DNA of 64,000 bases from Squalus acanthias (Eukaryota): NCBI GenBank assembly GCA_030390025.1, contig CM059432.1:97466001-97530000 (forward strand), read 5' to 3'. Position numbers and translations under genes: made by a program. The notes beneath the pieces are model-generated. The model was not told where the DNA came from, did not search any database, and worked only from the letters and a program-made list of their open reading frames with translations. Below are positions 29,845 through 63,188 of this stretch, piece after piece. Positions within the stretch are counted from its first letter, which is position 1; every line of letters starts with the position of its first letter.

Positions 29845-30587
29845 GGGCCAGAAATTCGGGTCGGAGGATTCCCGCGGGTGCAAGCCCCCAACCTGCACTT
29901 ACATAGCGCGCCTGCCGTTGTGCTGTGGGCCCGCGTGGGATTCCGATCCTGGGCCTCCTCCAGCTGCCGGTGTGCAGTGCTTGCGTATCCTAGGGGCGCA
30001 GTTAGTTCGAAGCGTCCCTGGGATCACGTGGGCCATGGGGAGCCAATCGGAGCAGGGAATCTCCATTCATAGATTTGACAGGAAGACCTGTCAAATCTAT
30101 GAATAGAGATCGGCCCCAAAACCTCACTAAAACTTCAAATAAATAAAAAAAAAATCACATTTTTAAAATAACTATAAATTACATAAATTAACTATTTTAA
30201 ACAAAAATTTACATTTTTGAAAAAATTACTTACAGTTTTTAACGGGGCTAAAAATAAACTTACCTTTCTTTAAAGTATTTAAAAAAGATAAACCTGTGGA
30301 AAAAATGTTTAAATTTTATTTAATTCACCACTTACCTTGTTAAAAGCAGGCCTTGTGCCTGCTTTTTCAACGCGCAGCTGCTAGGGACTTACCCTCACGG
30401 AGAAACCTGAAAAGAAAACGGAAGTTCCAGGCGTACGCGCTGCTTCTCCGGCGCACGCGTTTGACCTCCGAACCCCTTCCTTCAAGGGAACGGAAGTTCC
30501 GGTTTCCACGTGAAACCGGCACTTTCGTTGGGTCTACGGGTGAGTACACTGCGCGTACTCACCCGTGGAGACCCGGATTTCTGGCCC
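29845..30587 (-). mobile_element. Harbinger MITE family B
   Basis: TIR GGGCCAGAAAT / ATTTCTGGCCC, ATT TSD; opposite orientation to the copies at 33249 and 54996. Confidence 0.92.
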
Positions 30588-32393: not shown

Positions 32394-35300
32394 TTTTTTT
32401 TATTCGTTATGGGATGTGGGCGTCGCTGGCAAGGCCAGCATTTATTTCCCATTCCTAATTGCCCTTGAGAAGGTGTTGGTGAGCCGCCTTCTTGAACCGC
32501 TGCAGTCCGTGTGGTGAAGGTACTCCCACAGTGCTGTTAGGTAGGGAGTTCCAGTATTTTGACCCAGCGACGATGAAGATTCGATGATATACTTCTAAGT
32601 CAGGATGGTGTGTGACTTGGAGGGGAACTTGGAGGTGGTGGTGTTCCCATGCGCCTGCTGCCCTTCTCCTTCTAGGTGGAAGAGGTTGCGAGTTTGGGAG
32701 GTGCTGTCAAAGAAGCCTTGGTGAGTTGCTGCAGTGCATCTTGTAGATGGTACACACTGCAGCCACGGTACATCAGTGGTGGAGGGAGTGAATGTTTAAG
32801 GTGGTGGATGGGGTGCCAATCAAGCAGGCTGCTTTGTCCTGGATGGTGTCAAGCTTCTTGAGTGTTGTTGGAGCTGCACTCATCCAGGCAAGTGGAGAGT
32901 ATTCCATCACACTCCTTACTTGTGCCTTGTAGATCGTGGAAAGGCTTTGGGGAGTTAGGAGGTGAGACACTCGCCGCAGAATACCCAGCCTCTGACCTGC
33001 TCTTGTTGCTACAGTACTTATGTGGCTGGTCCAGTTAAGTTTCTTGTCAATGGTGACCCCCAGGATGATGATGGTGGGGAATTCGGTGATGGTAATACTG
33101 TTGAATGTCAATGGGAGGTGGTTAGACTCTCATTTGTTGGAGATAGTCATTGCCTGGCACTTCTGTGGCGCGAATGTTACCTGCCACTTATCAGCCAAAG
33201 CCTGAACGTCGTCCAGGTCTTGTTGCAGCGGGCATGGACTGCTTCATTGGGCCAGAAATTCAGCACTTGCCGGGTGAGTACGCGCTGTGTACTCACCCGT
33301 AAGGCCTCCTGAAGTGCCGGTTTCCTGCATGCACTGCGCATGTGCGGGAAGCCGGAACTTCCGTTCCCCTGAAGGGAGGGGTTCAGAGGTGAACCGCGTG
33401 CGCGGGAGAGGCTGCGCGCACGCAGCGAACTTCGTTTTTTTTTCAGGTTTCTCCGGGAAGGTAAGTATGGAGAAGCTGCGCTTTTAAAAAGGAGGCGCAA
33501 GACCCGTTTTTAACAAGGTAAGTGGTAAATTAATTACAATTTAAATTTTTTTTCAACAGGTTTAGCTTTTTTAGATACTTTAAAGAAAGGTAAGTTTATT
33601 TTTGGCACTGTTAAAAAGTATTTTAATTTTTTCAAAAATTTTAATTTTTGTTTAAAGTAGTTAATTTATTTAACTTATAGTTATTTTAAAAATGTGATGT
33701 TTTTTTTAAATTTATTTGAAGTTTAGGTGTTGTTTTGGGGCCGATTTCAGTTCATAGATTTGACAGGTCTTCCTGTCAAATCTATGAATGAAAATGCCCT
33801 GCTAGGATTGGCTCTCCATGGCCCACGTGATCCCAGGGGACGCTTCGAACTAACTGCGCCCCTGGGATACGCAAGCACTGCGCGCCGGCAGCTGCAGGAG
33901 GCCCAGGACCCGAAGTTCTCGTGGGTCCAAAACACGTCGGCAGGCGCGGTAGGTAAGTACGCGCGTGATGCTTGCATCCGCAGGAAGCTGGAAAACCGAA
34001 TTTCTGGCCCATTATCTGAGGAGTTGTGAATGGCGCTGAACACTGTGCAGTCATCAGCGAACATCCCCATTTCTGACCTTATGTTGGAGGGAAGGTCATA
34101 GATTAAGCAGCTGAAGATGGTTGGGCCTAAGACACTGCCCTGAGGAACTCCTGCAGCGATGTCCTGGGGCTGTGATGATTGACCTTCAACCACCACAACC
34201 ATTTTCATTTGTGCTAGCTATGACTCCAGCTAGTGGAGCGTTTTCCCCCCCCGATTCCCATCGACTTCAGTTTTGCTAGGGCTCCTTGATTCCACACTCG
34301 GTTAAATGCTGCCTTGATGTCTAGGGCAGTCACTCTCACCTCACCTCTGGAATTCAGCTCCTTTGTCCATGTTTGGACCAAGGCTGTAATGAGGTCAGGA
34401 GCCGAGTGGTCTTGGCGGAACCCAAACTGGGCATCAGTGAAAGGGTTATTGGTGAGTAAGTGCCGCTTGATAGCACTGTTGATGACACTTTCCATCATTT
34501 TGCTGATAATTGAGAGTAGACTGATGTTGGGCAGTAATTAGCCGGGTTGAATTTGTCCTGCTTTTTGTGGACAGGACATACCTGGGTAGTTTTCCACATT
34601 GTCGGATAGATGCCAGTGTTGTAGCTGTACTGGAACAGCTTGGCTAGAGGCGCGGCTAGTTCTGGAGCACAAATCTTCAGCACGATTGCCGGAATGTTGT
34701 CGGGGCCCATAGGCCTTTGCTGTATCCAGTGTGCTCAGCCGTTTCTTGATATCACGTGGAGTGAATCGAATTGGCTGTAGACTGGCTTCTGTGTTGTTAG
34801 GGACCTCAGGAGGAGGCTGATATGGATCATCCACTCGCCACTTCTGGCTGAAGATGGTTGCAAACGCTTCAGCCTTGTCTTTTGCACTCACATGCTGGGC
34901 TCCACCATCATTGCGGATGGGGATATTCATGGAGCTTCCTCTTCCCATTAATTGTTTAATGGCCCACCACCATTCACGACTGGATGTGGCAGGACTGCAG
35001 AGCTTTGATCTGATCCGTTGATTGTGGGATCGCCTAGCCCTGTCTATAGCATGCTGCTTCTGCTTTTTAGCATGCATGTCGTCCTGTGTTGCAGCTTCCC
35101 CAAGTTGGCACCTCATTTTTAGGTATGCCTGGTGCTGTTCCTGGCATGCTCTTCTACACTCCTTATTGAACCAGGGTTGGTCCCCTGGCTTGATGGTAAT
35201 GGTAGAGTGAGGGATACGCCAGGCCATGAGGTTACAGATTGTGGTGGAATGCAATTCTGCTGCTGCTGATGGCCCACAGCACCTCATGGATGCCTAGTTT

Positions 35301-45551: not shown

Positions 45552-45753
45552 TGTAGATTTTTTTAAAAACCCTGTACAATGCTGGAAGCCTGTTTGGCCC
45601 AGTGGTAAGGGCATGATACAGTTAAACCTAGAAGCACAGATACACCTGTGAGTTTTAATTTAACTTTGAAAAAGACATTTACTTTGGACAATGAGCGTCT
45701 CAATAGGTGATTTAACGGTGAATAGGTGATTTAACTTTGGACAATGAGACTTC

Positions 45754-46646
45754 GGGGTAAAAATTCACTTGGTTGCGCCTCCCGTTAGCGCCTTAAGAGG
45801 GCGCTAATGGGGCGCAAAGCCGCTAACGCCCGGGCGCAGCGATGTTTGCGCCGCTCGAGAACTTAACTTGAGATTGTGCGGCGGCGCTAAAACTTACCGC
45901 TGCGACCACCTGCGCGCGCAGATTGTGACGTCATTCCATGGTGCAACGCCCTTGTGGCGCCCCGTAGCAGAAATTGAGTGGCGCCCCCTGCCTTACCGCC
46001 TGGCGCTTCCAACGACCAGAAGACTGGAACGCTATCAATCGCTGTGGGGCTGGGGGGGGCGCTATTTAAAGGGGGCCTCTTCCTGTCTTTTATTGTTGGT
46101 GGCATTTTTGAACTACGCATTCTGAGAGAGAGAGGGAGAGACTTCTGGAGAGATTCAACGTTGTGTGAAGGAGTTTTGGGTACTGAGCAGCACTTTGCAG
46201 GTTCATTTTGATTTGCCATTCCTTGTATCGATTTAGCAGAGACTGTGGGAGCTGCACTCTGAGCTCTTTGCCTGGTACTCTCCATTGTACTTTCCAGCAC
46301 ATTTGATGTGCAAGTCTCTCCAGGCCGAGATTCAAGGCTGCAATGAACAGGATGTGGATGGAAAGCAAGATTAACCATCCCCTTTAAGAACTGGCCCGTG
46401 CCATTGTGTGTGTGTTCCATTGCTGACTGACATTACATGAGCTTCGCCAGCGCTCCGAGTTAGCGCCTCACTGCTCGCCCTTTGTGCCTTAAGAGAGGTG
46501 TGCAGCGCCTGCTTTAGCGCTCCACTCACCTCCCGGGGCGGTAAAAGTGAAGTTTCCTGTCAGTGCCGATAATTAGCGCCAGGCGCTAATATTTGCGTCC
46601 GGACGATATTTGCGCCCCAAATGGGGCGCGACCTAATTTCTACCCC
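45754..46646 (+). mobile_element. Harbinger MITE family A in the 5' LTR
   Basis: TTC TSD; empty site GAGACTTCGTG present in the 3' LTR. Confidence 0.95.
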
Positions 46647-47109
46647 TTCGTGTTTTAATGGGTTTCGATGGATCTTCAATGGATAAGACAATGATACCAG
46701 TTTTGCTGGAACAATGGACTTCCTGGCCTCAATGGAAAACACTTTAACCTTGGGCAAAACACATCAACAGTAAGACTAAATCACATTAAATATGCACCAC
46801 AGGGGGGTGAGGGGGGGGGGGAGGGGGCGGGGAGACAAGATAAGGAATTATCTTCCATCCCTCAGCCCTGTACATATCCTGTGGTTTTGATTACTAGGTG
46901 TGAATTGGAAAACAAGAGTTGGGGGAAGGCCCAGACTCGAAAAGGCGTGACGGAAGAGCTATAAAAAGGAACCACACCACAGCTCTCTCTCTCTCTCTCG
47001 GAAGCTAGCTCTGACTACAGCAACTGCCAGGTGTAAGAAGGAAGGGAAGACGGTCATCTCCAGATCCCAGCCTGCAATTGACGTCGGCCACGACCAGCCA
47101 GATGGGTGA

Positions 47110-48455
47110 TGTAAAATTCGCAATTATCGCGATTCGAAATAACGAGATAAAGCAGATTCGTTTCATCAGTTTTATTTCAACGAAATGCTGTCATGATTAA
47201 ACAGGACACAGAAGCCTGTAAAATGGCCGCCGAGCATCGTGGCAGAAGCTTCCAGAATACAGTGGGCAGACAAGATGGCGTTCGAATAAACATTTCAGTA
47301 TAAGATTGGTTAATACGCAGCAAACACTGATAAAGACAGGATGCAACCTGTCTGCATTCGACACAATAGCAAAGATATAAGTGCTGGAATCATTTTCCAT
47401 GCACAAGTAAGGACCATTGTACTGGGCAATCGAAGGCCCATCCAGACACAGCAATACACATATCAGTATTCGAGAAGGCCCCAAACCCAGTCAGGGAGAC
47501 TCCTAGCCGGCTCGACAATGGGGAAAACATTCACGGATAGTTGGCCAGTTTAAGGTGCTACTGAAACCCATTAAAGGAAAGAATCGCCCCATGCTGGGAG
47601 TTTTGTGCACCAGTATTACACAAAGGACAAACATCAAGATTTGAGCGGGAGATAAGGGAACACAGCACTATAACTATAGTGAACAAATGTCCATCAAGGG
47701 CTTATTCTCTTGATTCGACTCTTGACTCGGGCTGAACTCTTGCTTATTATTCTCTTATCTGGCTGAGGACTGCTGAACTCTTATTCGCTTGCCGCTTCAT
47801 GGACTCGCTTGACTGGTGAGCTTTTGATTGTCTCTCTGGACTTCTACAACCGTGTCCGAGCACTGTCGAGTTCTTCATGACAACAGGGAGCCCAGCCTGC
47901 TTGCCGGAGCAGCGAAGATAAACAAGTGGGGTACAGAGACCCCTTCCAACACGTGACAGTCAGGTGTCGCAGCGAAACAAGCCGAGAGCACCGTTTTAAA
48001 ATTCTCCGAAGTATCACGAGTGGTGAGCATGTTTCCTTGATCCTACAAATCTAGATTAGTGTAGGTATTAATAGGGGAGGGTGGTTTTATTAAGGATAAA
48101 TATAATGCGTTCCCCTTTTTACAATGTGCCGTGCGATCCTCATTACCCTAGACCAAGTTTTATGAATGTATGTATACTTGTACTGTCATTAATTTGTACC
48201 TATGACATGTACTTCATGATTTTGGATGTTATGCAATAAAGATTTCCATTTCGTACTATTCAACCGGGTCTATTTGAGTTTTCTCTGCATTACTGCTCTC
48301 GCACCTAAGTCCAGTGTTAGAACCGTAAGGGCGAGTGGGTCGAACCACTCACAGGTGCTTATTGCAACAAGGCTGGCCGGAGACCAGAGCAAGCAATAGT
48401 ATTAGGCAACGAAGGCCTAACCCCGCACAAGCACCACGAACCGTAACCCCTTACA
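47110..48455 (+). mobile_element. Solo LTR of another family inserted in the 5' LTR
   Basis: TGTAAAA...CCCCTTACA, GTGA TSD, AATAAA at 48235-48240; empty site GGGTGATTGTAAG in the 3' LTR. Confidence 0.92.
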
Positions 48456-48764
48456 GTGATTGTAAGTATCAGTTGACTCGACAAGATGTTTGCGCTGTGT
48501 AGGCTGCTGCAGTCAGATAAAGGAGGACAGGGACAGGTCATCTCCGATCCAGGCCTACAATCTACAATGGTAACGACTGGCCGTATGGGTGATTGTAAGT
48601 TTCAGCCAAATCTCAACAGGGTTTTGTCTGTGTTTTGTTGGTTTTAATAAACGAACAGTTTTGGGTTGAACCTAAACCTTTGTGTCATCTACCATTTTGT
48701 TCCTGTAAAACCCAGAGTCAAAGAACCCTTGTAAGGATGAGGAAACCAAACACCTTACATATCT

Positions 48765-48785
48765 TGGTGACCGGCGGCAGGATTC
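48765..48785 (+). promoter_or_regulatory. Primer-binding-site-like sequence, tRNA identity unresolved
   Basis: TGGTGACCGGCGGCAGGATTC after a 5-nt spacer from the LTR end. Confidence 0.65.
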
Positions 48786-48832
48786 TTGAGGTGTGGAACA
48801 AAATAAGGCACAAAGTAAGGGCAACAAACCCT

Positions 48833-48908
48833 AGGGAGGCTAAGGTAGTCTCAGGGAGGCTAAGGTAGTCTGAGGGAGGCTAAGGTAGTCTCAGGGAGGC
48901 TAAGGTAG
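48833..48908 (+). repeat. 20-bp tandem repeat (3.8 copies) in the leader
   Basis: Unit AGGGAGGCTAAGGTAGTCTC. Confidence 0.95.
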
Positions 48909-48943
48909 CCAAAGTAAACATTTCTGAGCCACGGGCAAAAGAA

Positions 48944-50488
48944 ATGATGTACTCTCCGCAGGAAAAAGCAGAAGAGTGGGCGGTTAGTAGTAACCATAAA
49001 AGAATGAGAGAAAAGGCGATTTGGCCACTGTGTCTACAGAAGAAAACCTCGATTCTCAGGGAATAGGTGAAACAGCTGGAAGATGAGAAAAGGGATCTAG
49101 AAACCAAGGCAAGCGATAAGGACGCCGTCATAGAGTGACTGACGAAAGATTTAAGTGAGGAAAGGCAGGAGAGAAAGATTAAGGAGGAGAGGGCGCAGAA
49201 TAATCTAGAATACTTACAGTGTCAGGTGACAGAGGGTAAGAGGCAGTGTCAGACTCACTGCGAACAAAGTGAAAGGAATCTAGAAAGAGCCGAAGAGGCG
49301 AAGGAACGATTGAAATATATCAAGGTAACGTATAGAGTAGCCCGAACTCAGGGTTATGAGGGGGCAGATCACGGGCCTTGTAATGAAAAGATCCGTAAGT
49401 TGACCTTAAAACTATCCGGGGCCAGAGGGATGGTTTGTCTCATGGCGCCTGGAGAAGTTGGGGAAGACTGGGATATGGAGGGTAAAGAATCAGATGATGG
49501 GCCCCCGTATAGCGAGCACCAGGACCACCGAGACCGATGTGTCCCCTACGACAGCAGAAGTTGGGTCCGCCACCAGTGGGTGGTGCCCGGCGCTGTTGCA
49601 GAGCTATTATGTGCTCCCATTTACACCACTTCAGCTACAGGAAATGCTGACGAGTGTGGCTAAATTAAAGCAGGGAGGGGACGCCTCCGTTTATTTCGCC
49701 AATGTAGAGCAGTTAGGGGGCATTAATAACTGCAACAAGGAGGAGATGAGGAAGTTGATACTGTTCTCCCTAGATGGGAAGCTATATCAGAGTTTGTCAG
49801 CAGCCACCAAGTTAGGGGGAGGAACCATGCACGACTTAAAGTTGAGATCTTGGTAGCACGAGGGCACAGCCCAGGTAGTCCGTTCTTGCAGGTGGAGCAG
49901 ACTAGGCAGCAGGCAGGCGAGTCACCAGATACGTTTGCAGATAGATTGTGGCCGACTTACGTGAGGGCCACTGGAGGAGATCTAGTATGCACAGACTTAA
50001 GAGGGGCTCCCAGGAATCATTGGCTGAGGACCGTAGTGTCCAACAGTTTGCCGCGAATCACGGCAAAGGCCGAGTCATGGTTTGACCCAGAGGACCTCCA
50101 CAATACGGAGGTGGGGGTGCTGAGGAAGCTGACGCCAGCTTTCAAGTCAGGACAAGGGGAAGAGGAGAAACACAGGGGGAAGGTGCACAAAGTGAAAGGG
50201 AATGTGAGGAGTAAAAGGGAATGGAGACAGGAGGGAAGTAATGCGGGTAGATCCCAGGCGTGTTTTAACTGTGGGAAGTTGGGACACTGGAGTAAGGAGT
50301 GTAAGCTCCCAAAAGGGGGGAAACCAGGGCACGAGGGTCCCGACATAGAGACGAACCGAGGGAAGGTAGAAGACGACCCAGTAAAAATCCTAGTGGCCGC
50401 ATTACAGCAGGTTATGGGCAAGGATAAAGGGAAACTGGATGCTGCTGTGGGTGACAGAGGACCCAGCGCGTCTGCACCCTCACTGTGA
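48944..50488 (+). pseudogene. gag: gag: N-terminal coiled coil, capsid-like region, single CCHC knuckle; stops and frameshifts
   Basis: E/K/R-rich heptads ~49060-49320; QQAGESPDTFADRL; CFNCGKLGHWSKEC at 50261-50302; start codon uncertain. Confidence 0.85.
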
Positions 50489-53400
50489 CGGGGCCGTGCC
50501 CAGCCCGAGTACCTGTGTCCGCTCATCTACGATGAGTGGGGCAGACCATGTGTAGATGTGAAAGTGGAGACCGTTAGGGGAAGGTATTTGGGAGATACAG
50601 GAGCCTCTAGCACGGTGGTCCACTCACCGAATCCGACCACTTCCCCATGGTCGAGCGGGGTCCCATTTACACTAGCAGGTTTCACAGGTAATGAACAGGC
50701 TGGGGCGGTATTGAAACCCTTAACGATAGAATTAGGACCCAATGTAACGAAATGGGAATGCATTTTGATGAAGTGGGAACAGCCCAGTTCGGGGGTTCTT
50801 GGGGCCGACTACATGTTGGCACACCATGCCATAGTAGACATGAAAAACAATTGTCTATGGGGGGCAGTCGATGCAGATAGTATAGGCGAAGTTGTAGTGA
50901 TTCCCAGGGACAGTAAGGAAATAGGCAGCACCTGTACGATGAAGCCGAAAGGGAGCTATGACCTGGAACAATTGGTCGATAGCATCCCGGCCAGGTATCA
51001 AAGGCATGTACGGGAGAATATAGACGTGTTTGCCACGCACAGACATGATTGCGGGAGAGTGATGGGGGTAGAGGTGAAGGTAGATGGGGACCCAATGTCG
51101 CGGCCCCAGAAACAGTATAACTTTCCCCGGGAAGCAGAAAAGGACTTGGAAACTGCTATAAATTTCCTGGTGGAACAAGGTGTATTAAGAACGATAGCCA
51201 CCCATGTAAATTCACCCCTTTGGCCGGTAAAGAAGTCCGATAAATCATGGAGGACCACGGTAGATTACTGGGTCCTGAATAAGAATATTCCAGCCTGTGC
51301 GTCCACGGTAGCGGCAGTAGCAGACTTAATAGGGAGTATCCCCACGGCGGCAACAACTTTTACAGTATTGGATATTTCAAACGGGTTCTGGTCCATTCCC
51401 ATGAGGTGGGAGGATCAGTATAAATTTGCCTTTACATTTAAAGGACAGCAGTATACGTGGACGTGTCTTCCACAAGGGTTTCACAATAGTCCCTCAATTT
51501 TCCACCAAAGCATGGCCGAGGCACTAAAGGGTTTTAGTCAGCCTGACTGGTTGATCCAATATGTGGATGATCTGTTATTATTCTCCGAAGGTACGGAGGA
51601 TCACGGGCCATTACTGAGTGAATTATTGGAGCTGTTAAAGGAAGCAGGTTTTAAAGTAAATCCAAAGAAAGCCCAAGTTGGACAAGGGCAGGTGCAATTT
51701 TTAGGATTGACCATGAAAGCAGGAGAAAGAGCTATAGATGGAGCGAAGAGAAAGGCAGTCCAGTAACTACCCATTCCAAAGGACGTGTCTGGGGTAAGGT
51801 CTTTCCTGGGAATAACAGGTTAGGCAGGGAGTTTATCGAAGGATATGCAGCCATGGCAGCACCTTTGCTGAGGCTTCTTAGGAAGGGAGTAGAATGGGAG
51901 TGGGATGAAAGTTGCCAGGAAACATTTACGTGCTTAAAAGAGGACTTACAAACGGCACCCGCGTTAGGAGTGATAAATGGGGACCAGGACTTTTACCTGG
52001 AGGTAGCGGCTACTGGGGACAGTTTAAGCGCAGTGTTACTCCAAGAGCGGCACGGCAGGTTGAGACCAGTGGCCTACGCCTCCCGAGTTCTTACAGAGCT
52101 TTTCTAATTGCGAGCAGCATCTTTTGGCGACCTTTTGGGCCGTCAAACACTTTCGGTCATTCACAGGGTCAGCTACAGTGACCCTATTGACCTGTCACAC
52201 CCCGACACAAATGTTACTGGACGATAGGATGAAGGATGGGACAGTGAGTAGCAGTAGGATTGCCCGTTGGACGTTGCTACTTTCTCAGTTGGACCTGAAA
52301 GTGGAAAGACTAGGGGAGCCAAAGCTAGCCCCGAATCTGGTTTATCCGGGGACGGCTCACGTGTGCTCAGTAGAAGGAGTGTGGGATGTAGATGTGGGAT
52401 TCCGGGCCGGGGAACACCCGACAGGTAGAGATATTTACGTGGCTGGGTCTAGTTCGGTGACAAACGGAGAAAGAAGGACAGGGTGGGGGATTTATGATCC
52501 AGAGGCAGGGATAGAGAAGGCCATAAAACTCCCCAACACTTTGAGTGCACAGCAGGCCGAATTGGCGGCCGTAACATATGTAGTCACACCCCCCAGTGAA
52601 CTCCCAACCCCCTATACAATATGCTCGGACTCGATGTTTACTTGCAACTCCTGCACGGGGTATCTAGCAATATTGGCTAGGCGAGGGTTCAAGTCCTCAG
52701 ATGGGAAGCCGTTGGTGACAGCCCCTCTGTTAGAAGTCATTCTGAACCTCACGGGTACTAACCAGCAGGATTACTACATCCAAAAGGCTAAAGCGCATTC
52801 CAAGACAGAGCCTAAGTGGAAATGGAATCAGAACGCTGATGTACTGGCCAAAATGGGGGCAGGGGAAGGGATACCTTGGGACCCATACTGATCCGGACTG
52901 TAAAGGGTAAAGAGGGACACAAGGAGGTACAATTGCCACTCAATTTGAAACAGGCTCAGCTGCAAGATGCAGTCCTTAAAACGGTAATTAAGGATAAGGA
53001 ATGTGGGAAGCCGGTCGAGGGAACTTTTGGAGCAGCAGACGTAGCAGTGAAACAGGGGATGTTATTCAAGGGGATTAGGTGGGTCGTGCCCGTGCAGTAC
53101 AGGGAAGAATTTTTGCAGCTAGCTCACGGAGGTCCGGAGGCCGGACATCCAGGGCCAGAAACGACTTGGAATAAAGTGGAGGCTGTGGGATGGTGGGCCC
53201 AGCTCAGGGAAGATGTAAGGGATTATTGCGAGAACTGTTTAGTGTGCGCGGCGAATATCCAGACTCCCACCGAAGGAAGGTTCCGTTGGGACACACGAGG
53301 AGGGTAGAGGGACCATGGCAGTCTATACAGGTAGATTTCATTGGGCCACTGCCCAACACAAGTAGGGGCAATAAATATTGTCTGGTATTAGTGGATACTT

Positions 53401-54261
53401 TCTTGAAATGGGTGGAAGCTTTTCCTTGTAGGGCAGCGACAGCGTTAAACATGGCTAATGATTCTAGTGAAGGAAGTGTTTTCCCGGTGGGGACTGCCCC
53501 GGATAGTAGAGTCAGATCAGGGAACTCATTTCACCGGACTAGTAATGCAGGCCACCCTGAAGCTGCTCGGAATACAGGGAAAGTGGCACGTGGCGCATAA
53601 CCCCCAATCATCGGGTATAGTAGAGAGGATGAACCGGACCTTAAAAGAGAGGCTTAGGAAAGAGATCGGAGAGGTCCCGAAGAGATGGGATGAAGTCCTA
53701 CCCCTGGACCTAATGAGCATCAGAGCCAGTCTCTCTAAAAGTACGGGACACTCCCCACATGAGTTGATGACAGGGAGGTCGATGAGGACCCCGACTCATG
53801 TGTTGGTACCGGTCCTGACCGAAGCACAGGTTAAGGAGGTCACACGGCACAGGTTTGTTAGAGATCTGTACAATACACTAAGGGGGCTGCATTGGGAGGC
53901 AGCTAACAATATGGGAAGGCAGCACCAACAGAATAAAATGCTGTTGGAACCACAGGTAACACAGGAGTGGCAGGTAGGGGACCAGGTAATGGTCAGGAAT
54001 TATGCCAGAGTAGGGGCATTCAAGCCATTATTTAAAGGACCCTATAATATCGTGGATAAGGTAAGTCCTATGGTCTATGCGATCCAGCTGCCGAGGCGAC
54101 CAAAATGGTTTCACATCAACCAGTGCAAACTGTACAACTCCGGAGAGAGAAGCACAAAAGGGGCCAAGGCCCAAGGAACCGTAATGAGTTTGATCAATGT
54201 GAGCCTTTCTCCCGTGCTGTGGGATGATGAGGATGACTCAGAGGGCGGAGCGGTGAGATGA
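50489..54261 (+). pseudogene. pol: pol: protease, RT, degenerate RNase H (tether), RNase H, integrase; several lesions
   Basis: GRPCVDV...DTGAS; LDISNGFW, LPQGFHNSP, YVDD (51560-51571); RPVAYASR; YVAGSS...SAQQAEL...SDS...NADVLAK; H-x6-H...CxxC, QVDFIGP, SDQG, GIVERMN, GPY. Confidence 0.95.
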
Positions 54262-54439
54262 AGTAGTCGGGTGCCGAGACCCAGGGTGCTCTGGACGCCT
54301 CCTCCTACTCCACCCCTGGGCCTCAAGAAGCCCAAACATCGGGACAAGAAAAAACGAAAGCAGTGATTGAACCAAAGTGTAAATATGTGTATCATTTAAG
54401 TGTGACCTGTGAAGGGGAGACCCCCTCACAGAGCAGTGT

Positions 54440-54463
54440 TATTCTTTTGTTTTGTTTTTATAG
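54440..54463 (+). promoter_or_regulatory. Candidate env splice acceptor
   Basis: TATTCTTTTGTTTTGTTTTTATAG ending 25 nt before the env ATG at 54489. Confidence 0.7.
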
Positions 54464-54488
54464 AAGCGAATCGAATCAAGGACGCGAG

Positions 54489-57400
54489 ATGAGGTGGACG
54501 CTATGGATGAGCGTGTGGATGATCCTGATTAAAGCAGGGTGGGGAGATCGGGGAGACACCGAGACATTCTTTACATATGGGTGTATGGGAGGAACTGGCC
54601 CCACCGTAACTCAGCGGGGGGGGGGGACACGGGGTAATTATGGTACAATGACATACTCCCACGATGGGAATTGGCCGGGTTGGCTAGGGTCGAACTCGAC
54701 CAAGTATTCAAGGCGAACCGAGGACAAGATTGGGGAAGTGTCGGTGTCCTGCCCAAAGGTAAACATCACGACTAAGAGGGAACGGGTGAAAGAGGGTAGA
54801 CAGGTTTGTCTGGAATGTAAGGGGAGCACCCCCATGGGATGGTGGTGGTGGTTGCGGAAAACAGACAAAGGTAAAAATAACGCATCCACGGAATGGGGAA
54901 AGTTGGGTAATAATTCAAACAGGCGGACCATGGGAACTAAGAAAGGGGTAAAATTGTGCTGGGATAAATGATGGAAGAAGGAGCAAGGAGTTAATGGCCC
55001 AGAAATTCGGGTCCCCTCCCGTAAGGCCACCGGAAGTGCCGGTTTCGCGCATGCACTGCGCATGCATGGGAAACCGGAACTTCCGGTCTCTTGAAGGAAG
55101 GGGTTCGTGGGTCAACCGCGTGTGCGGGAGAGGCAGCGTGTACACATCGAACTTCTGCTTTTTTTACAGGTTTCTCCGTGCGGGTAAGTCCCTGCAGCTG
55201 CGCGTGGAAAAAACAGGCGCAAGGCCTGTTTTTAACAAGGTAAGAGGTGAATTAAGTAAAATTGAAACATTTTTTCCACAGGTTTATCATTTTTAAATAC
55301 TTTAAAGAAAGGTAAGTTTATTTTTAGCCCGTTAAAAACTTTAATAAATTTTTTCAAAAATTTAAATTTTTGGTTAAAATTTAGTAAATTTATGTAATTT
55401 ATAGTTATTTTAAAAATGTGATGGTTTTTTAAAAATTTATTTGAAGTTTTACTTAGGTTTTGGGGCCGATCTCTATTCATAGATTTGACAGGTCTTCCTG
55501 TCAAATCTATGAATGGAGATTCCCTGCTTCGATTGGCTCCCCATGGACCACGTGATCCCAGGGGATACTGCGAACTAACTTCACCCCTGGGATACACAAG
55601 CACTGCACACCGGCAGCTGGAGGAGGCCCAGGATCGGAATCGCACGTGGGCCCACAGCACAACGGCAGGCGCGCTATGTAAGTGCACCCGCTATGCTTGC
55701 ACCCGCGGGAAGCCTCCGACCCGAATTTCTGGGCCTATGTGTGCGTGGTCGGGTCGGGGCACAACTGCAAAGGGGGGGTTGCCATTACTTTCAAACGGCA
55801 GTGGCAGGACTCCGGGTCAGGAGTGAATTGGACTCAGAGTTTTGACTCTTGCGTGACCCTGGATCCTCCAAAAGCAGTCAATGCGACCGAACTGGTCGCG
55901 AGCAAGATGAAGCCTCTACCGAAAGCACCAGAGACTCAGGGTACAGAGGTCAAATGTCCCGTAATGGCACCTGGGCCTAAAAATGGGCTGGTGTTGATCC
56001 CAACAAAAAAATGATGTATCATACTGTATATTACGGAGTAGCGTCGGTTATTCTTAATTTAACAGAGTTACAGTTGCCCCGGTGGTGCCCGCCAGAGACG
56101 GAAAAGTTGTATGAAAAGTTGTTAAAAGAAATGTTCAGACAATTCTACGAGAGGAATTATGGGGACGAAAGTCGGGGGGGAGTGTACAAACTGGTACATA
56201 ACAGCCACACGGGCTGGGGGAGACGAAAAAGGGGACTGATTAATGATGCGGCCATGGTGTTTAATACAGGGACGTCACTGATCAACAGTATGGACAACGC
56301 GCAGTTGCAATTACAAGTAAATACCCTAAGGGACCCGCTAAGGAAAATACTGGGGGAGGATAATGACATTGAGGGTCACGAATTGCAGGAAGACCAGGTG
56401 ATGACGATTCATCTAAAGGAAATGGTAGCTGAGCTGGAGACTCACGCTCAGACCATCAATGTATTAATAAAGGAGGGCCAAAATGCATCGGATCGGGCTG
56501 CCCAAAATGATGTGTGTGTCATGTACGGGGCCTGGTTGTTAAACGAGGGGCGCAGTAATTTAGAGGATTTAAAACAAGGCCACGTACCATCATGGATCAG
56601 TAACCTAAAGGCTTTAAGCGCTTATAACAACCTCATGAATCCGTGTCAGCTACAGTCGGCCTCCGAAGCGTACCCGGTCCCTGTCAACTGTGGTCAGAAT
56701 AAACAAACGGTAATGGGGATAGTTCTGAGGATGCCGGTGATGGATCAGGCGCAACGACCGGGTAGAAAACATTGGTGTAATTCGAAACGGGGTACATATG
56801 AAGCATCATAAAACCCCTCAGTATGTGGTGAAGTTGGGGAACTCGATAACCGGCACTAGTCTGGAGCGATGTCAGGGAGGAGGTACACATGTGGTATTGT
56901 GTCCCTACCATTTGAATCTTTTCGATCGGCCGGTATGTGGGTTTGAATACGGAGACGGGCAGCCTATCAGCTGTATCATGGAAGTGATGGCTCACAGCCA
57001 TGTCTCGCCCCAGGTTGCGTACAAGGGTAATAGAACCTACTGTGTAACCACTAGCGAAAGTCGGTACAGAATACACAGGGACACCTGGTGTCCAGTTCAA
57101 GATTCCACCTTTTGCTTCAAGCCCCAGGTAGAGACACAAGTAGCACAAGAAAGGATAATCCCCATCTCAGACCACAAACACATCGGTATCACAGTTAACG
57201 GTACTTTACTGAACCTCCAAGAATACATATCGCGTTTTGGATACGATATCCCACCGTTACCCGAACATTTGGTTAAGCTATTAAAGAACCTAGAGTTGTC
57301 CCAAAAACATTATTTCGCGTTACAGCAAAAGAATGAGAAAGAAAGGGAGGAAATCGAAGAGACGATTACCCCTCCGTGGTGGGATGTGGGACTTAACATT

Positions 57401-57553
57401 GAGATCCCTCCTTGGATTCGAATCGCGTCGCATGTGTTGGTAATTGTACAATTGTGTATTATGTTGTATCTATTAATCTTGTCGTGTAAATTAAAAAGGA
57501 AGAGAAGAAGGGGGAAACTTAAAAGATTGAAGCGGGAGGTTCCGAGTGTTTGA
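54489..57553 (+). pseudogene. env: env: signal peptide, Ig-like domain, furin site, F-type fusion subunit, TM anchor; one stop, MITE insertion, two frameshifts
   Basis: MRWTLWMSVWMILIKAGWG; RRKR (56221-56232) then GLINDAAMVFNTGTSLIN and heptads; Cys-rich block; IASHVLVIVQLCIMLYLLILSC then basic tail. Confidence 0.9.
54996..55735 (+). mobile_element. Harbinger MITE family B inserted in env
   Basis: Perfect 18-bp TIR GGCCCAGAAATTCGGGTC; flanks AAT/TAT (TSD with one mismatch). Confidence 0.93.
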
Positions 57554-57668
57554 ACCGAATGTAATAAAAGTGAAATGTAAAGATTTGGTTGAGACCGGCA
57601 ATGCACCCAAAGGCAAAGAAGAAGTCGAATTGGTCAAGAGTAATGCTTCTAGTTTATAAAGAGACATT

Positions 57669-57679
57669 AAAGGGGGGAA
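57669..57679 (+). promoter_or_regulatory. Polypurine tract
   Basis: AAAGGGGGGAA immediately before the 3' LTR TG. Confidence 0.9.
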
Positions 57680-57806
57680 TGTAGATTTTTTTTTAAACCT
57701 GTACAATGCTGGAAGCCTGTTTGGCCCGGTGGTAAGGGCATGATACAGTTAAACCTAGAAGTACAGACACACCTGTGAGTTTTAATTTAACTTTGGAAAA
57801 GACATT

Positions 57807-58706
57807 GGGCTGGATTTTGTCTTGGGGTCGGGTTGTGATCGTGTCATCCGCATTTCATGTTCCCCCGCCCCCGACTCCAGATTAATGTGGATGAATGATG
57901 CAATTTTCACTTAATTGGGCAATTGAGTTCCAGCATGTGGGAACCCATGAATCAATTAGTGGTTTCCTGCTGCATTGCAGGTCAAAGACTGACTGCCTGG
58001 TCTCAGAGACAGCCTGGCTGTTGGTGAGAGAGGACCTGCCTGGCATTTGCTGTGAGGAGAGATAGAGAGATAGAGATAGAGAGAGATAGCGATAGAGATA
58101 GCGATAGTGATAGAGATAGCGATAGAGATAGCGATGGAGATAGAGATGGAGATAGAGATAGAGATGGAGATGGAGATGGAGATGGAGATAGAGATAGAGA
58201 TAGAGATAGAGATAGAGATAGAGATAGAGATAGAGATAGAGATAGAGATAGAGATAGAGATAGAGATAGAGATAGAGATAGAGATAGAGAGAGAGAAAAG
58301 GCCAGGCAGTCTCTTCAATGCAGCAGCATCAGAGGTGACTTTCAGACCTAATACTACTACCTTCATCACATCTCCATTGTAATAGTGGACCTGCAGCTGA
58401 CTATCAGCTATCCACTTGTGCTCCCGCCAGGTTTCACTGGCGTGTTTCACATCAGGCGTACTTCACGTCGGAAAAGGGTTAAACTAGCTAAAACGTTTCA
58501 AAATGGCATTACAGAGCCAATTTAGGGCTTGTTAAGGGCTTTAATGGCCTCTCCCACCTCTTGGAGGCGGGACGGAGTCGGGAACCCCGCGACTGATTTT
58601 GTCAAAATTGCGTGGAGGCGGGATGGGGTCGGGACCCCCGACCCCGGAACTTTAACCCCCCACACGCCTCCAAACCCGACTCCACGGGTCATTCAAAATC
58701 CAGCCC
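57807..58706 (+). mobile_element. Harbinger MITE family C in the 3' LTR
   Basis: GGGCTGGATTTTG / CAAAATCCAGCCC, ATT TSD, empty site in the 5' LTR. Confidence 0.95.
58057..58296. repeat. (GAGATA)n hexamer microsatellite with GCGATA and GAGATG variants
   Basis: Direct reading. Confidence 0.97.
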
Positions 58707-59566
58707 ATTTATTTTGGACAATGAGCGTCTTGATAGGTGATTTAACGGTGAATAGGTGATTTAACTTTGGACAATGAGACTTCGTGTTTTGATGGGTTTC
58801 GATGGATCTTCAATGGATAAGACAATGATACCAGTTTTGTTGGAACAATGGACTTCCTGGCCTCAATGGAAAACACTTTAACCTTGGGCAAAACACATCA
58901 ACAGTAAGACTAAATCACATTAAATATGCACCACAGTGGGGTGGGGGGGGGGGGGGAGACAAGATAAGGAATTATCTTCCATCCCTCAGCCCTGTACATA
59001 TCCTGTGGTTTGGATTACTAGGTGTGTATTGGAAAACAAGAGTTGGGGGAAGGCCCAGACTCGAAAAGGCGTGACGGAAGAGCTGTAAAAAGGAACCACA
59101 TCACAGCTCTCTCTCTCTCTCTCGCTGGGAAGCTAGCTCTGACTACAGCAACTGCCAGGTGTAAGAAGGAAGGGAAGACGGTCATCTCCAGATCCCAGCC
59201 TGCAATCGACGTCGGCCACGACCAGCCGGACGGGTGATTGTAAGTATCAGTTGACTCGACAAGATGTTTGCGCTGTGTAGGCTGCTGCAGTCAGATAAAG
59301 GAGGACAGGGACAGGTCATCTCCGATCCAGGCCTACAATCTACAATGGTAACGACTGGCCGTATGGGTGATTGTAAGTTTCAGCCAAATCTCAACAGGTT
59401 TTTGTCCGTGTTTTGTTGGTTTTAATAAACTAACAGTTTTGGGTTGAACCTAAACCTTTGTGTCGTCCACCATTTTGTTCCTGTAAAACCCAGAGTCAAA
59501 GAACCCTTGTAAGGACGAGGAAACCAAACACCTTACAGCTGTATGATTCTATGATTCGATAATTCT

Positions 59567-61213: not shown

Positions 61214-62237
61214 TCTATGCCAGTATTTATGCTCCACACAAGCATACTCCCACCCTTCTTCATCTAACTCCATCAACATATCCTTCTATTCCTTTCTCCC
61301 TCATGTGCTCATTCCCCTTAAATGCATCTATGCTAGTCACCTCAACCACTCCTTATGGTAGCGAGTTCCACATTCTAACCACTCTCTGGGTAAAGAAGTT
61401 TCTCCTGAATTTCCTGTTGAATTTATTAGTGACTATCTTATATTTATGGCCCCTAGTTCTGGCCTCGCCCACAAATGGAAACATTTTCTCTATGTCTACC
61501 ATATCAAGCCCTTTCATAAAGGCCTCTATCTGGTCAGCCCCTCAGTCTTCTCTTTTCTACAGAAAAGAGCCCCTGCCTTTTTAATATTTCCTGATGGGTA
61601 TAACCTCTCAGTTCTCGTATCATTCTAGTAAATCTTTTTTGCACCTTCACCAGTGCATCTATGTCCTTTTATAATATGGAGACCAGAACTGGGTGATCAC
61701 ATTAAATCTAATAATGTTGTGGTTACAGTTGCCCGAGTGTTACTGAACTTTTGAAGTCTGACACTGCATCAGGGTCACTAATATATCTAAATCCTGTACC
61801 CGATTACTCCCAGTTTCCTCACAAACATGTTGTGTAAGGATATAATCATTTATTATACCTACAAATCTTTCCGCTGTCCTACTCTCAATGGCCAGTAAAG
61901 TGAAATAATGTATATTAACTGAAGGGATGGGAAACATAATTCAACAATTAGGTAGACATAGAGAACATGTTTCCACTTGTAGGTGAGGCCAGAAATAGGG
62001 GCCATAAATATAAGATAGTCACTCATAAATTCAACAGGAAATTCAGGAGAAACGTCTTTACCCAGAGAGTGGTTAGAATGTGGAACTCGCTACAACAAGG
62101 AGCCGTTGAGGTGACTAGCAGAGATGCATATAAGGGGAATGTGCACATGAGGGAGAAAGGAATAGAAGGATATGTTGATGGAGTTAGAAGAAGAAGGGTT
62201 GGAGTATGCTTGTGTGGAGCATAAATACTGGCATGGA
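61214..62237. repeat. Inverted pair of CR1 3' fragments (61214-61500 and 61951-62237; the minus copy extends to ~61690)
   Basis: 287-bp arms are near reverse complements. Confidence 0.85.
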
Positions 62238-62239
62238 AC

Positions 62240-63188
62240 TGTTGGATATTGGAATACAGAGTAGAATTTCTAAATTTGCTGATGACACCAAACTTGGGCG
62301 TGTGGCAAACAGTGAGGATGATACCAATCGACTGCAACAGGACATAGAAAGGCTAGCAGAATGGGCAGAAAAATGGCAGATGGAATTTAATACAGAGAAG
62401 TGTGAGGTGATGCATTTTGGCAGAAGGAACAGGGAGAGGCAATATACACTTAATGGCACAGTTTTAAAGAGTGTGCAGGGACAGACGGACCTGGGAGTTA
62501 ATGTGCATAGGTCCCTGAAGGTGGCGGGACATATTGAGAGAGTGGTTAGCAAAGCATATGGGATCTTGGGTTTCATAAATAGAGGTATTGAGTACAAAAG
62601 TAGAGAAGTTATGCTGAATCTTTATAAAGCGCTGGTTAGGCCACAACTGGAGTATTGCATTCAGTTCTGGTCACCACACTTTAGGAAGGATGTGAAGGCC
62701 CTTGAGAGGCTGCAGAGGAGATTTACCAGAATGGTTCCGGGGATGGGGGATCTTAGCTACAAGGACAGGTTGGAGAAGCTGGAATTGTTTTCATTAGAGC
62801 AAAGGAGGCTGAGGGGTGATTTGATCGAGGTGTACAAGATTATGACGGGTTTGGATAGGCTAGACGGGGAAAGGCTGTTCCCACTAGTTGATAGTACAAG
62901 GACTAGGGGACACAGATTTAAGGTTTAGGGCAAGAGATACAGGGGGGATGTGAGGAAAAACTTTTTTACACAGCGAGTGGTGAGTACCTGGAACTCGCTG
63001 CCGATTGAAGTGGTGGAAGCGGACACACTCAATGTTTTCAAGGGGAGACTGGATAGGCACTTGAGGGAAATAAACTTGCAGGGCTATGGGGATAGAGTGG
63101 GGGAATGGGACTGACTGGATTGCTCTGCAGAGAGCCGACATGGACTCAATGGCCCGAATGGCCTCCTTCTGTGCTGTTATGACTCTAT
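62240..63188 (+). mobile_element. Young 5'-truncated CR1 LINE (RT C-terminal part and 3' tail)
   Basis: ISKFADDTKLG, WQMEFNTEKC, LVRPQLEYC, RRLRGDLIEVYK; tail GGCCCGAATGGCCTCCTTCTGTGCTG. Confidence 0.93.

Follow-up and report, generated by a model that had tools for sequence, protein, structure and literature searches.

Introduction

The F-type fusogens of paramyxoviruses depend on a separate attachment protein. Envs of the F type are already known among retroviruses too, in the loki- and foamy viruses, and the foamy virus Env, for want of an attachment partner, has its own receptor-binding domain inserted (PMC11468914, sections covered). Capture of an immunoglobulin (Ig) domain into a retroviral Env is likewise already known, the SIRP-like domain RBD-C having been read as a host-captured receptor-binding domain (Hotzel, bioRxiv 10.1101/2024.03.17.585361, part of the preprint). 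SnRV-like endogenous retroviruses (ERVs) have been reported from elephant shark, coelacanth and amphibians (PMC4422223, PMC4977317, portions covered). Here we have analyzed a stretch of 64,000 nucleotides of the genome of Squalus acanthias (contig CM059432.1, positions 97,466,001 to 97,530,000; hereafter the window, whose own numbering is used below) that contains a class III provirus, probably SnRV-like. Its Env carries, in front of what appears to be an F-type core, a domain that very probably has an Ig fold.

Results

Organization of the provirus

The window includes a decayed provirus (45552 to 59537) with two interrupted LTRs, gag, pol and env, bounded by a 4-bp target duplication, GCTG. 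This copy is dead. Its parts are the following:

45552 to 48759, plus strand: 5' LTR (TG...CA), broken up by other insertions
49139 to 50488, plus strand: gag with a CCHC zinc knuckle, in more than one frame
50489 to 54261, plus strand: pol with protease, RT (LIQYVDD), tether and second RNase H, and integrase, broken by frame changes
54489 to 57553, plus strand: env, whole gene span
54489 to 54545, plus strand: env start codon, then a probable signal peptide whose cleavage site was placed by eye
54549 to 54557, plus strand: RGD near the predicted mature N-terminus
54558 to 54749, plus strand: N-terminal arm of about 65 residues with the motifs Y-G-C and W-P-G-W-L-G-S-N-S-T, under purifying selection
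54750 to 54992, plus strand: Ig-like domain, strand A to the start of strand F (B-strand Cys at 54816, C-strand Trp at 54849)
54996 to 55735, no strand assigned: MITE of 740 bp, with 18-bp perfect terminal inverted repeats, a 3-bp target duplication and high copy number
55736 to 55810, plus strand: Ig-like domain, remainder of strand F (Cys at 55742) and probable strand G
55850 to 55969, plus strand: Pro/Thr-rich linker, under the weakest constraint within env
55970 to 56220, plus strand: F2-like segment, opening with the motif P-G-P-x-x-G-L-V-L, frame change near 56010
56221 to 56232, plus strand: furin-type site RRKR, followed by fusion peptide and heptad repeat
56233 to 57553, plus strand: F1-like subunit with a basic tail, frame change near 56760 to 56810
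57680 to 59537, plus strand: 3' LTR, broken up by a different insertion

The transmembrane helix of the F1-like subunit is located at about 57422 to 57487. Over four aligned blocks (985 bases) the two LTRs show 26 differences, which corresponds to some 60 million years, a very rough figure at the shark rate assumed in PMC4422223 (portion covered). The later insertions differ between the two LTRs and include a (GAGATA)n tract (58023 to 58338). A 20-bp repeat occurs in tandem in the leader that separates the 5' LTR from gag (48813 to 48928), and the 5' gag frame (49139 to 49660) is rich in Glu, Lys, Gln and Arg and coiled-coil-like, with no Pfam match, resembling the smc-like region described for some lokiretroviruses. 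Elsewhere in the window, on the minus strand (61950 to 62930), is a fragment resembling a LINE reverse transcriptase end, presumably of the CR1/L2 type.

An Ig-like domain split by a MITE

The initial annotation had proposed that an Ig-like domain is hidden in env because the MITE at 54996 to 55735 splits it. Sister loci in the same genome have borne this out: most of them carry the domain unbroken and in frame, therefore the domain is real and no reconstruction is needed. Upstream of the MITE are found the motifs V-x-E-G-x-x-V-x-L-x-C (Cys at 54816 to 54818) and W-x-R-K (Trp at 54849 to 54851), and downstream of it Y-x-C (Cys at 55742 to 55744), the insertion point splitting the predicted F strand after its G-x and before its Y-x-C. 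The upstream piece alone gives a weak Pfam Ig_3 match (E 0.012). The window's domain also contains an in-frame stop (54969 to 54971), located before the MITE, and extra Cys codons at 54807 and 54957.

The insert is short, has terminal repeats and a target duplication, is present in high copy number and contains no long frame, i.e., it is a MITE, which we take to be of the PIF/Harbinger type. Of 5,738 genome candidates 40 were scored, and all 40 (its own copy included) matched it at length with 91–100% identity. The 3-bp target duplication has one mismatch in the window and is perfect in three of the six other copies in which both ends were found. The MITE is a later insertion, unrelated to the Ig-like domain. 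Two more members of the same family are found in the window, at 29845 to 30507 (90% identity) and 33296 to 34010 (83%), and a 24-bp internal hairpin (55469 to 55520) is present in other copies as well.

Conservation and selection in sister copies

The N-terminal piece of env has at least 150 matches, with 47–100% identity, in the 3.7 Gb genome searched (150 of 5,357 candidates were scored, and all of them matched). In 17 of 19 sister loci (L002 to L020) an E-Q-G-V-Y-x-C strand shared its reading frame with the B and C strands, and the MITE end was absent from all 18 sister loci where the left flank was found. The Ig hallmarks first described from the rejoined halves, with two Cys 61 residues apart, are thus present in natural copies (positions 27 and 88); this spacing is within the range of about 55–75 that is typical of Ig V/I-type domains. 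Over 21 natural rows, W38, Y86 and C88 were kept in every one and C27 and G84 in 20, while Glu replaced the canonical Asp before G-x-Y in 19. Extra Cys at domain positions 5, 24, 74 and 96 appeared in 20–21 of the 21 rows; judging from the register, Cys24 (strand B) and Cys74 (strand E) may form a second bond. The domain is unusually rich in Trp, much of it conserved, and includes N-glycosylation sequons. When the Cys/Trp/YxC pattern was checked in other family members it had been kept, not lost: the hallmark residues persist across six subfamilies (natural stop-free copies grouped by eye) and also in the relatives from skate and sawshark. The species to which relatives of the env head could be assigned are a skate, a sawshark and the whale shark.

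Purifying selection on the domain in other copies, raised in the initial annotation as something to look for, is apparent between subfamilies, where the mean dN/dS was 0.06–0.36 (11 of 15 comparisons, unsaturated; the means exclude saturated pairs, dS above about 1.5 being unreliable). Within subfamilies the values were 0.46–0.87, a range biased by the selection of stop-free copies. Constraint on the arm, on F2 and on the beginning of F1 was similar to that on the Ig-like domain, and the Pro/Thr-rich linker was looser than the other parts of env (0.16–0.64); in this region-wise analysis three frames were skipped when they came first in a pair, no regions being obtained for them.

The RGD was kept in 29 of 32 anchored copies of this genome, with Arg and Gly codons that vary synonymously (33 anchored rows minus the false anchor L049; seven further loci lacked an anchor). 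The initial suggestion that the motif may be there by chance can accordingly be rejected for the families of this genome. At the same position the relatives in other species read R-G-R, R-G-A or G-G-N, and no RGD was found at the N-terminal position in the skate, sawshark and whale-shark relatives and one further relative.

Two groups of copies (L003, L012, L017 and L018, and L040, L041, L042, L047 and L048) have shared large internal deletions in env. In both, much of the F1 core is gone, and the Ig head and the membrane-proximal end remain; these may be defective lineages spread in trans. In a related subfamily, which gave thousands of first-look candidates, many pol frames with identical scores are open over about 1,500 codons and env-region frames over about 800, therefore the family has been active recently. 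In a gene model of Pristiophorus japonicus (P0031) an array of C2H2 zinc fingers is joined to the signal peptide, arm and Ig domain of env, with an RGD directly before the Ig domain and not at the N-terminus. Either the annotation is chimeric or the env head has been exonised.

Evidence for an Ig fold

We consider an Ig fold of the V/I type highly likely, on lines of evidence that are weak individually but converge. The Pfam Ig_3 profile was matched over positions 2–77 of its 78, with E<=0.1 in 13 of 18 copies (best 1.4e-4), and the best score was 22.8 bits, under the 30-bit cut-off. In the profile search against PDB, CD8-alpha came first (E 0.005) and 11 of the 13 rows were Ig-superfamily chains; the CD8-alpha alignment places the B-strand Cys, the C-strand Trp, the E strand and G-x-Y-x-C in canonical register. 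CRTAM is also among the nearest sequence and structure neighbours. The language-model features of the ESM Atlas gave scores of 0.92–0.94, and the ten best family-assigned matches all belonged to the Ig clan (V-set clusters). Searching 1.84 billion representatives with the profile returned six members of the family, followed by two multi-Ig proteins (E about 1e-4), which scored 38–45 bits versus at most 7.4 for 20 shuffles of each.

Two AlphaFold2 runs produced models that are all-beta, their strands placed where expected, with pLDDT of 67 and 56 for the best of five models (the remaining four in each run scored 39–53), and strand G was modelled poorly. At E<=0.001 neither model had a Foldseek match in PDB, nor did the first one among viral models. 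With VIA-align, the best matches of the first model were bacterial adhesin sandwiches (Z 7.5, below the Z 8 caution level), aligned over the whole 123 residues. The Ig-superfamily matches of this model cover residues 5–96 only, and we have for this reason read the adhesin matches as a probable effect of the extra C-terminal strands. For the second model FlgD was first (Z 5.8) and TREM-1 tied with it (Z 5.6, rmsd 2.8 A, 84 residues), again below Z 8, followed by TREM2, NKp44 and pIgR; about 40 of the 50 neighbours listed were Ig-superfamily or antibody chains. Over both models the Ig-superfamily structural matches had Z values of 4.5–5.6 and rmsd of 2.6–3.3 A. Of the checks proposed at the outset, Pfam gave an Ig signal below its cut-off, structure prediction gave models of low pLDDT, and Foldseek was blank.

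The fusion core and the affiliation of the element

Behind the linker, the Env continues with P-G-P-x-x-G-L-V-L, RRKR and a stretch resembling a fusion peptide, and ends with a heptad repeat followed by an anchor. A natural sister frame of 491 residues matched Gypsy-env, Baculo_F and Fusion_gly clusters of the Atlas (families PF00523, PF12259 and PF07253) at 0.94, with a low recognition value (1797). Neither the env pieces of the window nor five long natural frames had a Pfam match to Fusion_gly or to TLV_coat (gamma-type Env), and the F-like part had no PDB sequence match. The core is best described as a putative F-type class I fusogen: the fusion glycoprotein originally suggested finds support in the layout and in the Atlas feature matches, short of proof. 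The order of the parts was also as first described, with the Ig-like domain between signal peptide and F2, except that it does not follow the signal peptide directly, the arm of about 65 residues intervening.

In an RT tree of 30 rows, the window RT fell in a clade of 15 (100/99) together with frog, coelacanth, turtle and caecilian Pol and with P0009, which we take to be SnRV. The other 15-row clade is presumably gamma/epsilon-like. A motif check on the identity of P0009 and of this other clade found nothing. Among PDB entries, the prototype foamy virus RT matched the window RT best. A dual RNase H (RT_RNaseH and RNase_H matches) was detected in the frame 52064 to 52888; it is common to all retroviruses and so not diagnostic.

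Membership in the lokiretroviruses was considered and set aside. The Loki RT has IYVDD and PFGY-x-NSPA-x-FN, versus LIQYVDD and LPQGFHNSP in the window (compared by eye at 10 of the 21 listed YVDD places), QYVDD has no occurrence in the portion of the PMC7947760 supplement searched, and according to the part of the same paper covered, Loki was found in none of six chondrichthyan genomes. From the RT clade, the missing Loki signatures and the reported hosts of SnRV-like ERVs, we therefore read the element as class III and probably SnRV-like, on a tree that included no labelled SnRV and no Loki reference sequence.

Discussion

Origin of the domain

The domain was most likely taken long ago from a host gene of the Ig superfamily, a source favoured because it is the simplest one for a canonical Ig domain; the route could have led via another virus. 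Nothing close to a donor was found among 58 frames from the 60 best-scoring host Ig loci, which are a small part of the host Ig repertoire. The best of these frames, a TCR-V-like segment by our reading, scored 6.4 bits, and 4 of the 58 exceeded 5 bits versus 0 of 348 controls, an excess that is generic Ig likeness. Among the 1.84 billion representatives only the generic multi-Ig proteins (E about 1e-4) came up. Of the initial proposal of a captured host Ig domain, the Ig-like domain is supported and its capture plausible, and the searches for its donor were blank.

A Pol gene model of the frog Pyxicephalus (P0005), 54% identical to the window RT, continues after the integrase (about residues 1187–1300) into what looks like a signal peptide and then a V-type Ig domain that lacks the B–F cysteines (Ig_3 E 0.012; best PDB matches SLAMF5 and CEACAM8). 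No homology was detected between this domain and that of the shark (hhalign probability 0.1), and no relatives of it were found among shorter proteins. The tail of P0005 may be the start of the element's env or a fused host exon. A tentative generalization would be that the Envs of SnRV-like class III elements are F-type with an exchangeable N-terminal slot, filled repeatedly by host Ig domains (V/I-type in sharks, an unrelated CD2/SLAM/CEACAM-like V domain in the frog, as in the P0005 tail), entry borrowing one half of a host Ig–Ig adhesion pair, aided in sharks by the RGD.

A proposed receptor-binding head and the alternatives

Going beyond the layout, the conservation, the selection and the MITE insertion, which are direct observations, our best reading, held with moderate confidence, is that the Ig domain would be a receptor-binding head on an F-type Env. 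The putative F-type class I fusogen would bear this extra head at its N-terminus, in the predicted order signal peptide, RGD, 65-residue arm, Ig V/I domain, Pro/Thr-rich linker, F2, furin site, fusion peptide, F1 and anchor. After cleavage the head would remain on the F2/SU subunit. The Ig domain would grip a cell-surface protein, probably another Ig-superfamily member, the RGD may add an integrin contact, and receptor binding would then trigger the F core. Once captured, the domain would have been maintained by selection on the virus. We favour this function because an F-type Env has no partner attachment protein, and foamy and gamma-type Envs carry binding domains of their own.

The domain might instead be displayed by virions or infected cells to deceive the immune system, as a decoy or a mimic engaging a host immune receptor or ligand (in pairs like those of CD8, TREM, CD300 or pIgR), with entry proceeding via another part of the Env. 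We regard this as improbable. Its nearest neighbours are indeed immune receptors (CD8-alpha, CRTAM, TREM-1/2, NKp44, pIgR), but these are generic V-type matches with weak scores, and the lost likeness to the donor speaks against close mimicry of one host protein. Several copies retain the head after losing much of the fusion core; on the other hand the domain is as constrained as that core, and no other candidate attachment module was seen in the Env. The position of the domain and the layout are the reasons why receptor binding is favoured over mimicry.

A structural job is similarly unlikely: the Ig fold would cap, shield or stabilise the pre-fusion trimer, or aid its folding, and attachment would be left to the RGD and arm or to the F core. 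The conserved Trp and extra Cys are what would be expected of a packed interface, and the sequons in the domain and the conservation of the RGD within the genome fit too. However, the variable Pro/Thr-rich linker suggests a tethered, separate domain, and Loki Envs, as far as the portions of PMC7947760 covered go, work headless. Least probable of all is a viral beta-sandwich that is Ig-like by convergence and no descendant of the Ig superfamily: the sub-threshold Pfam score, the low-confidence models with bacterial sandwiches as top structural matches and the blank donor search would agree with it, but the canonical register of Cys, Trp, E strand and G-x-Y-x-C with CD8-alpha, the Ig clan in every Atlas family match and the host Ig frames that outscored all controls speak against it.

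If the domain is a receptor-binding head, an Ig domain in front would be a third probable solution to the attachment problem, after the separate protein and the foamy insertion. It would also add another retroviral Env to those that have gained an Ig-superfamily binding domain from the host, on a scaffold and in a host group that are new in the literature searched. The data suggest that F-type Envs reach beyond the loki- and foamy viruses into SnRV-like elements. Being small and expressible, the domain could serve to look for the receptor of an ancient lineage of class III retroviruses.

Comparison with known Env systems

In MLV the SU has a proline-rich hinge behind its binding domain. Gammaretroviral SU (MLV/FeLV RBD-C, HERV-Pb1) has an N-terminal IgV-like domain that binds the receptor, ahead of the rest of SU, where the shark Env has its Ig-like domain, but RBD-C lacks the B–F disulfide and belongs to a gamma-type Env, whereas the shark domain has the B and F Cys and its Env no TLV_coat match (Hotzel preprint, part covered). 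The SIRP-like RBD-C of Env-Dbi and Env-Per is an N-terminal IgV with the B–F disulfide and an extra one (same preprint, part covered). There the Env is gamma-type, alpharetrovirus-like and found in mammals, in contrast to the F-type scaffold and elasmobranch host described here, and the donor SIRP is recognisable by BLAST, whereas for the shark domain no donor is recognisable.

The foamy virus Env, from a class III-related virus, is an F-like class I fusogen that has its receptor-binding domain built in, a layout like the one proposed here for the shark Env. The foamy binding domain has a fold of its own and is located inside SU, upstream of a furin site, whereas the shark head is N-terminal; the Ig fold named for the foamy Env belongs to the F core, as its domain II, and is no N-terminal addition (PMC11468914, sections covered).

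Like the SnRV-like class III ERVs, among them the elephant shark CmiERV lineage I, the element has a cartilaginous-fish host, and its RT groups with coelacanth and amphibian elements, from hosts named for the SnRV-like clade; the portions of PMC4422223 and PMC4977317 covered do not describe the domain layout of Env for these ERVs. In the literature searched, which included few subscription papers, neither an F-type Env nor the Env of a shark ERV is reported to carry an Ig domain. The word immunoglobulin is absent from the main text and the portion searched of the supplement of PMC7947760, and from the main texts, where covered, of PMC9040795, PMC12440569, PMC10699275 and the preprints 2021.11.23.469661 and 2023.10.26.564294.

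The Loki Env (Wang and Han, PMC7947760, portions covered) shares with that of the shark the signal peptide, R-x-K-R, fusion peptide, coiled coil, anchor and likeness to F0. The ectodomain core of Loki opens with a motif of the type P-G-P-x-x-G-[IL]-V-L, as F2 does in the shark element, and both viruses have the dual RNase H. In the Loki Envs examined in the supplement of that paper (part covered), the motif comes right after the signal peptide and there is no head. With the core motif matching and the Loki Envs headless, the head of about 225 residues therefore appears as an addition to a shared F-type core.
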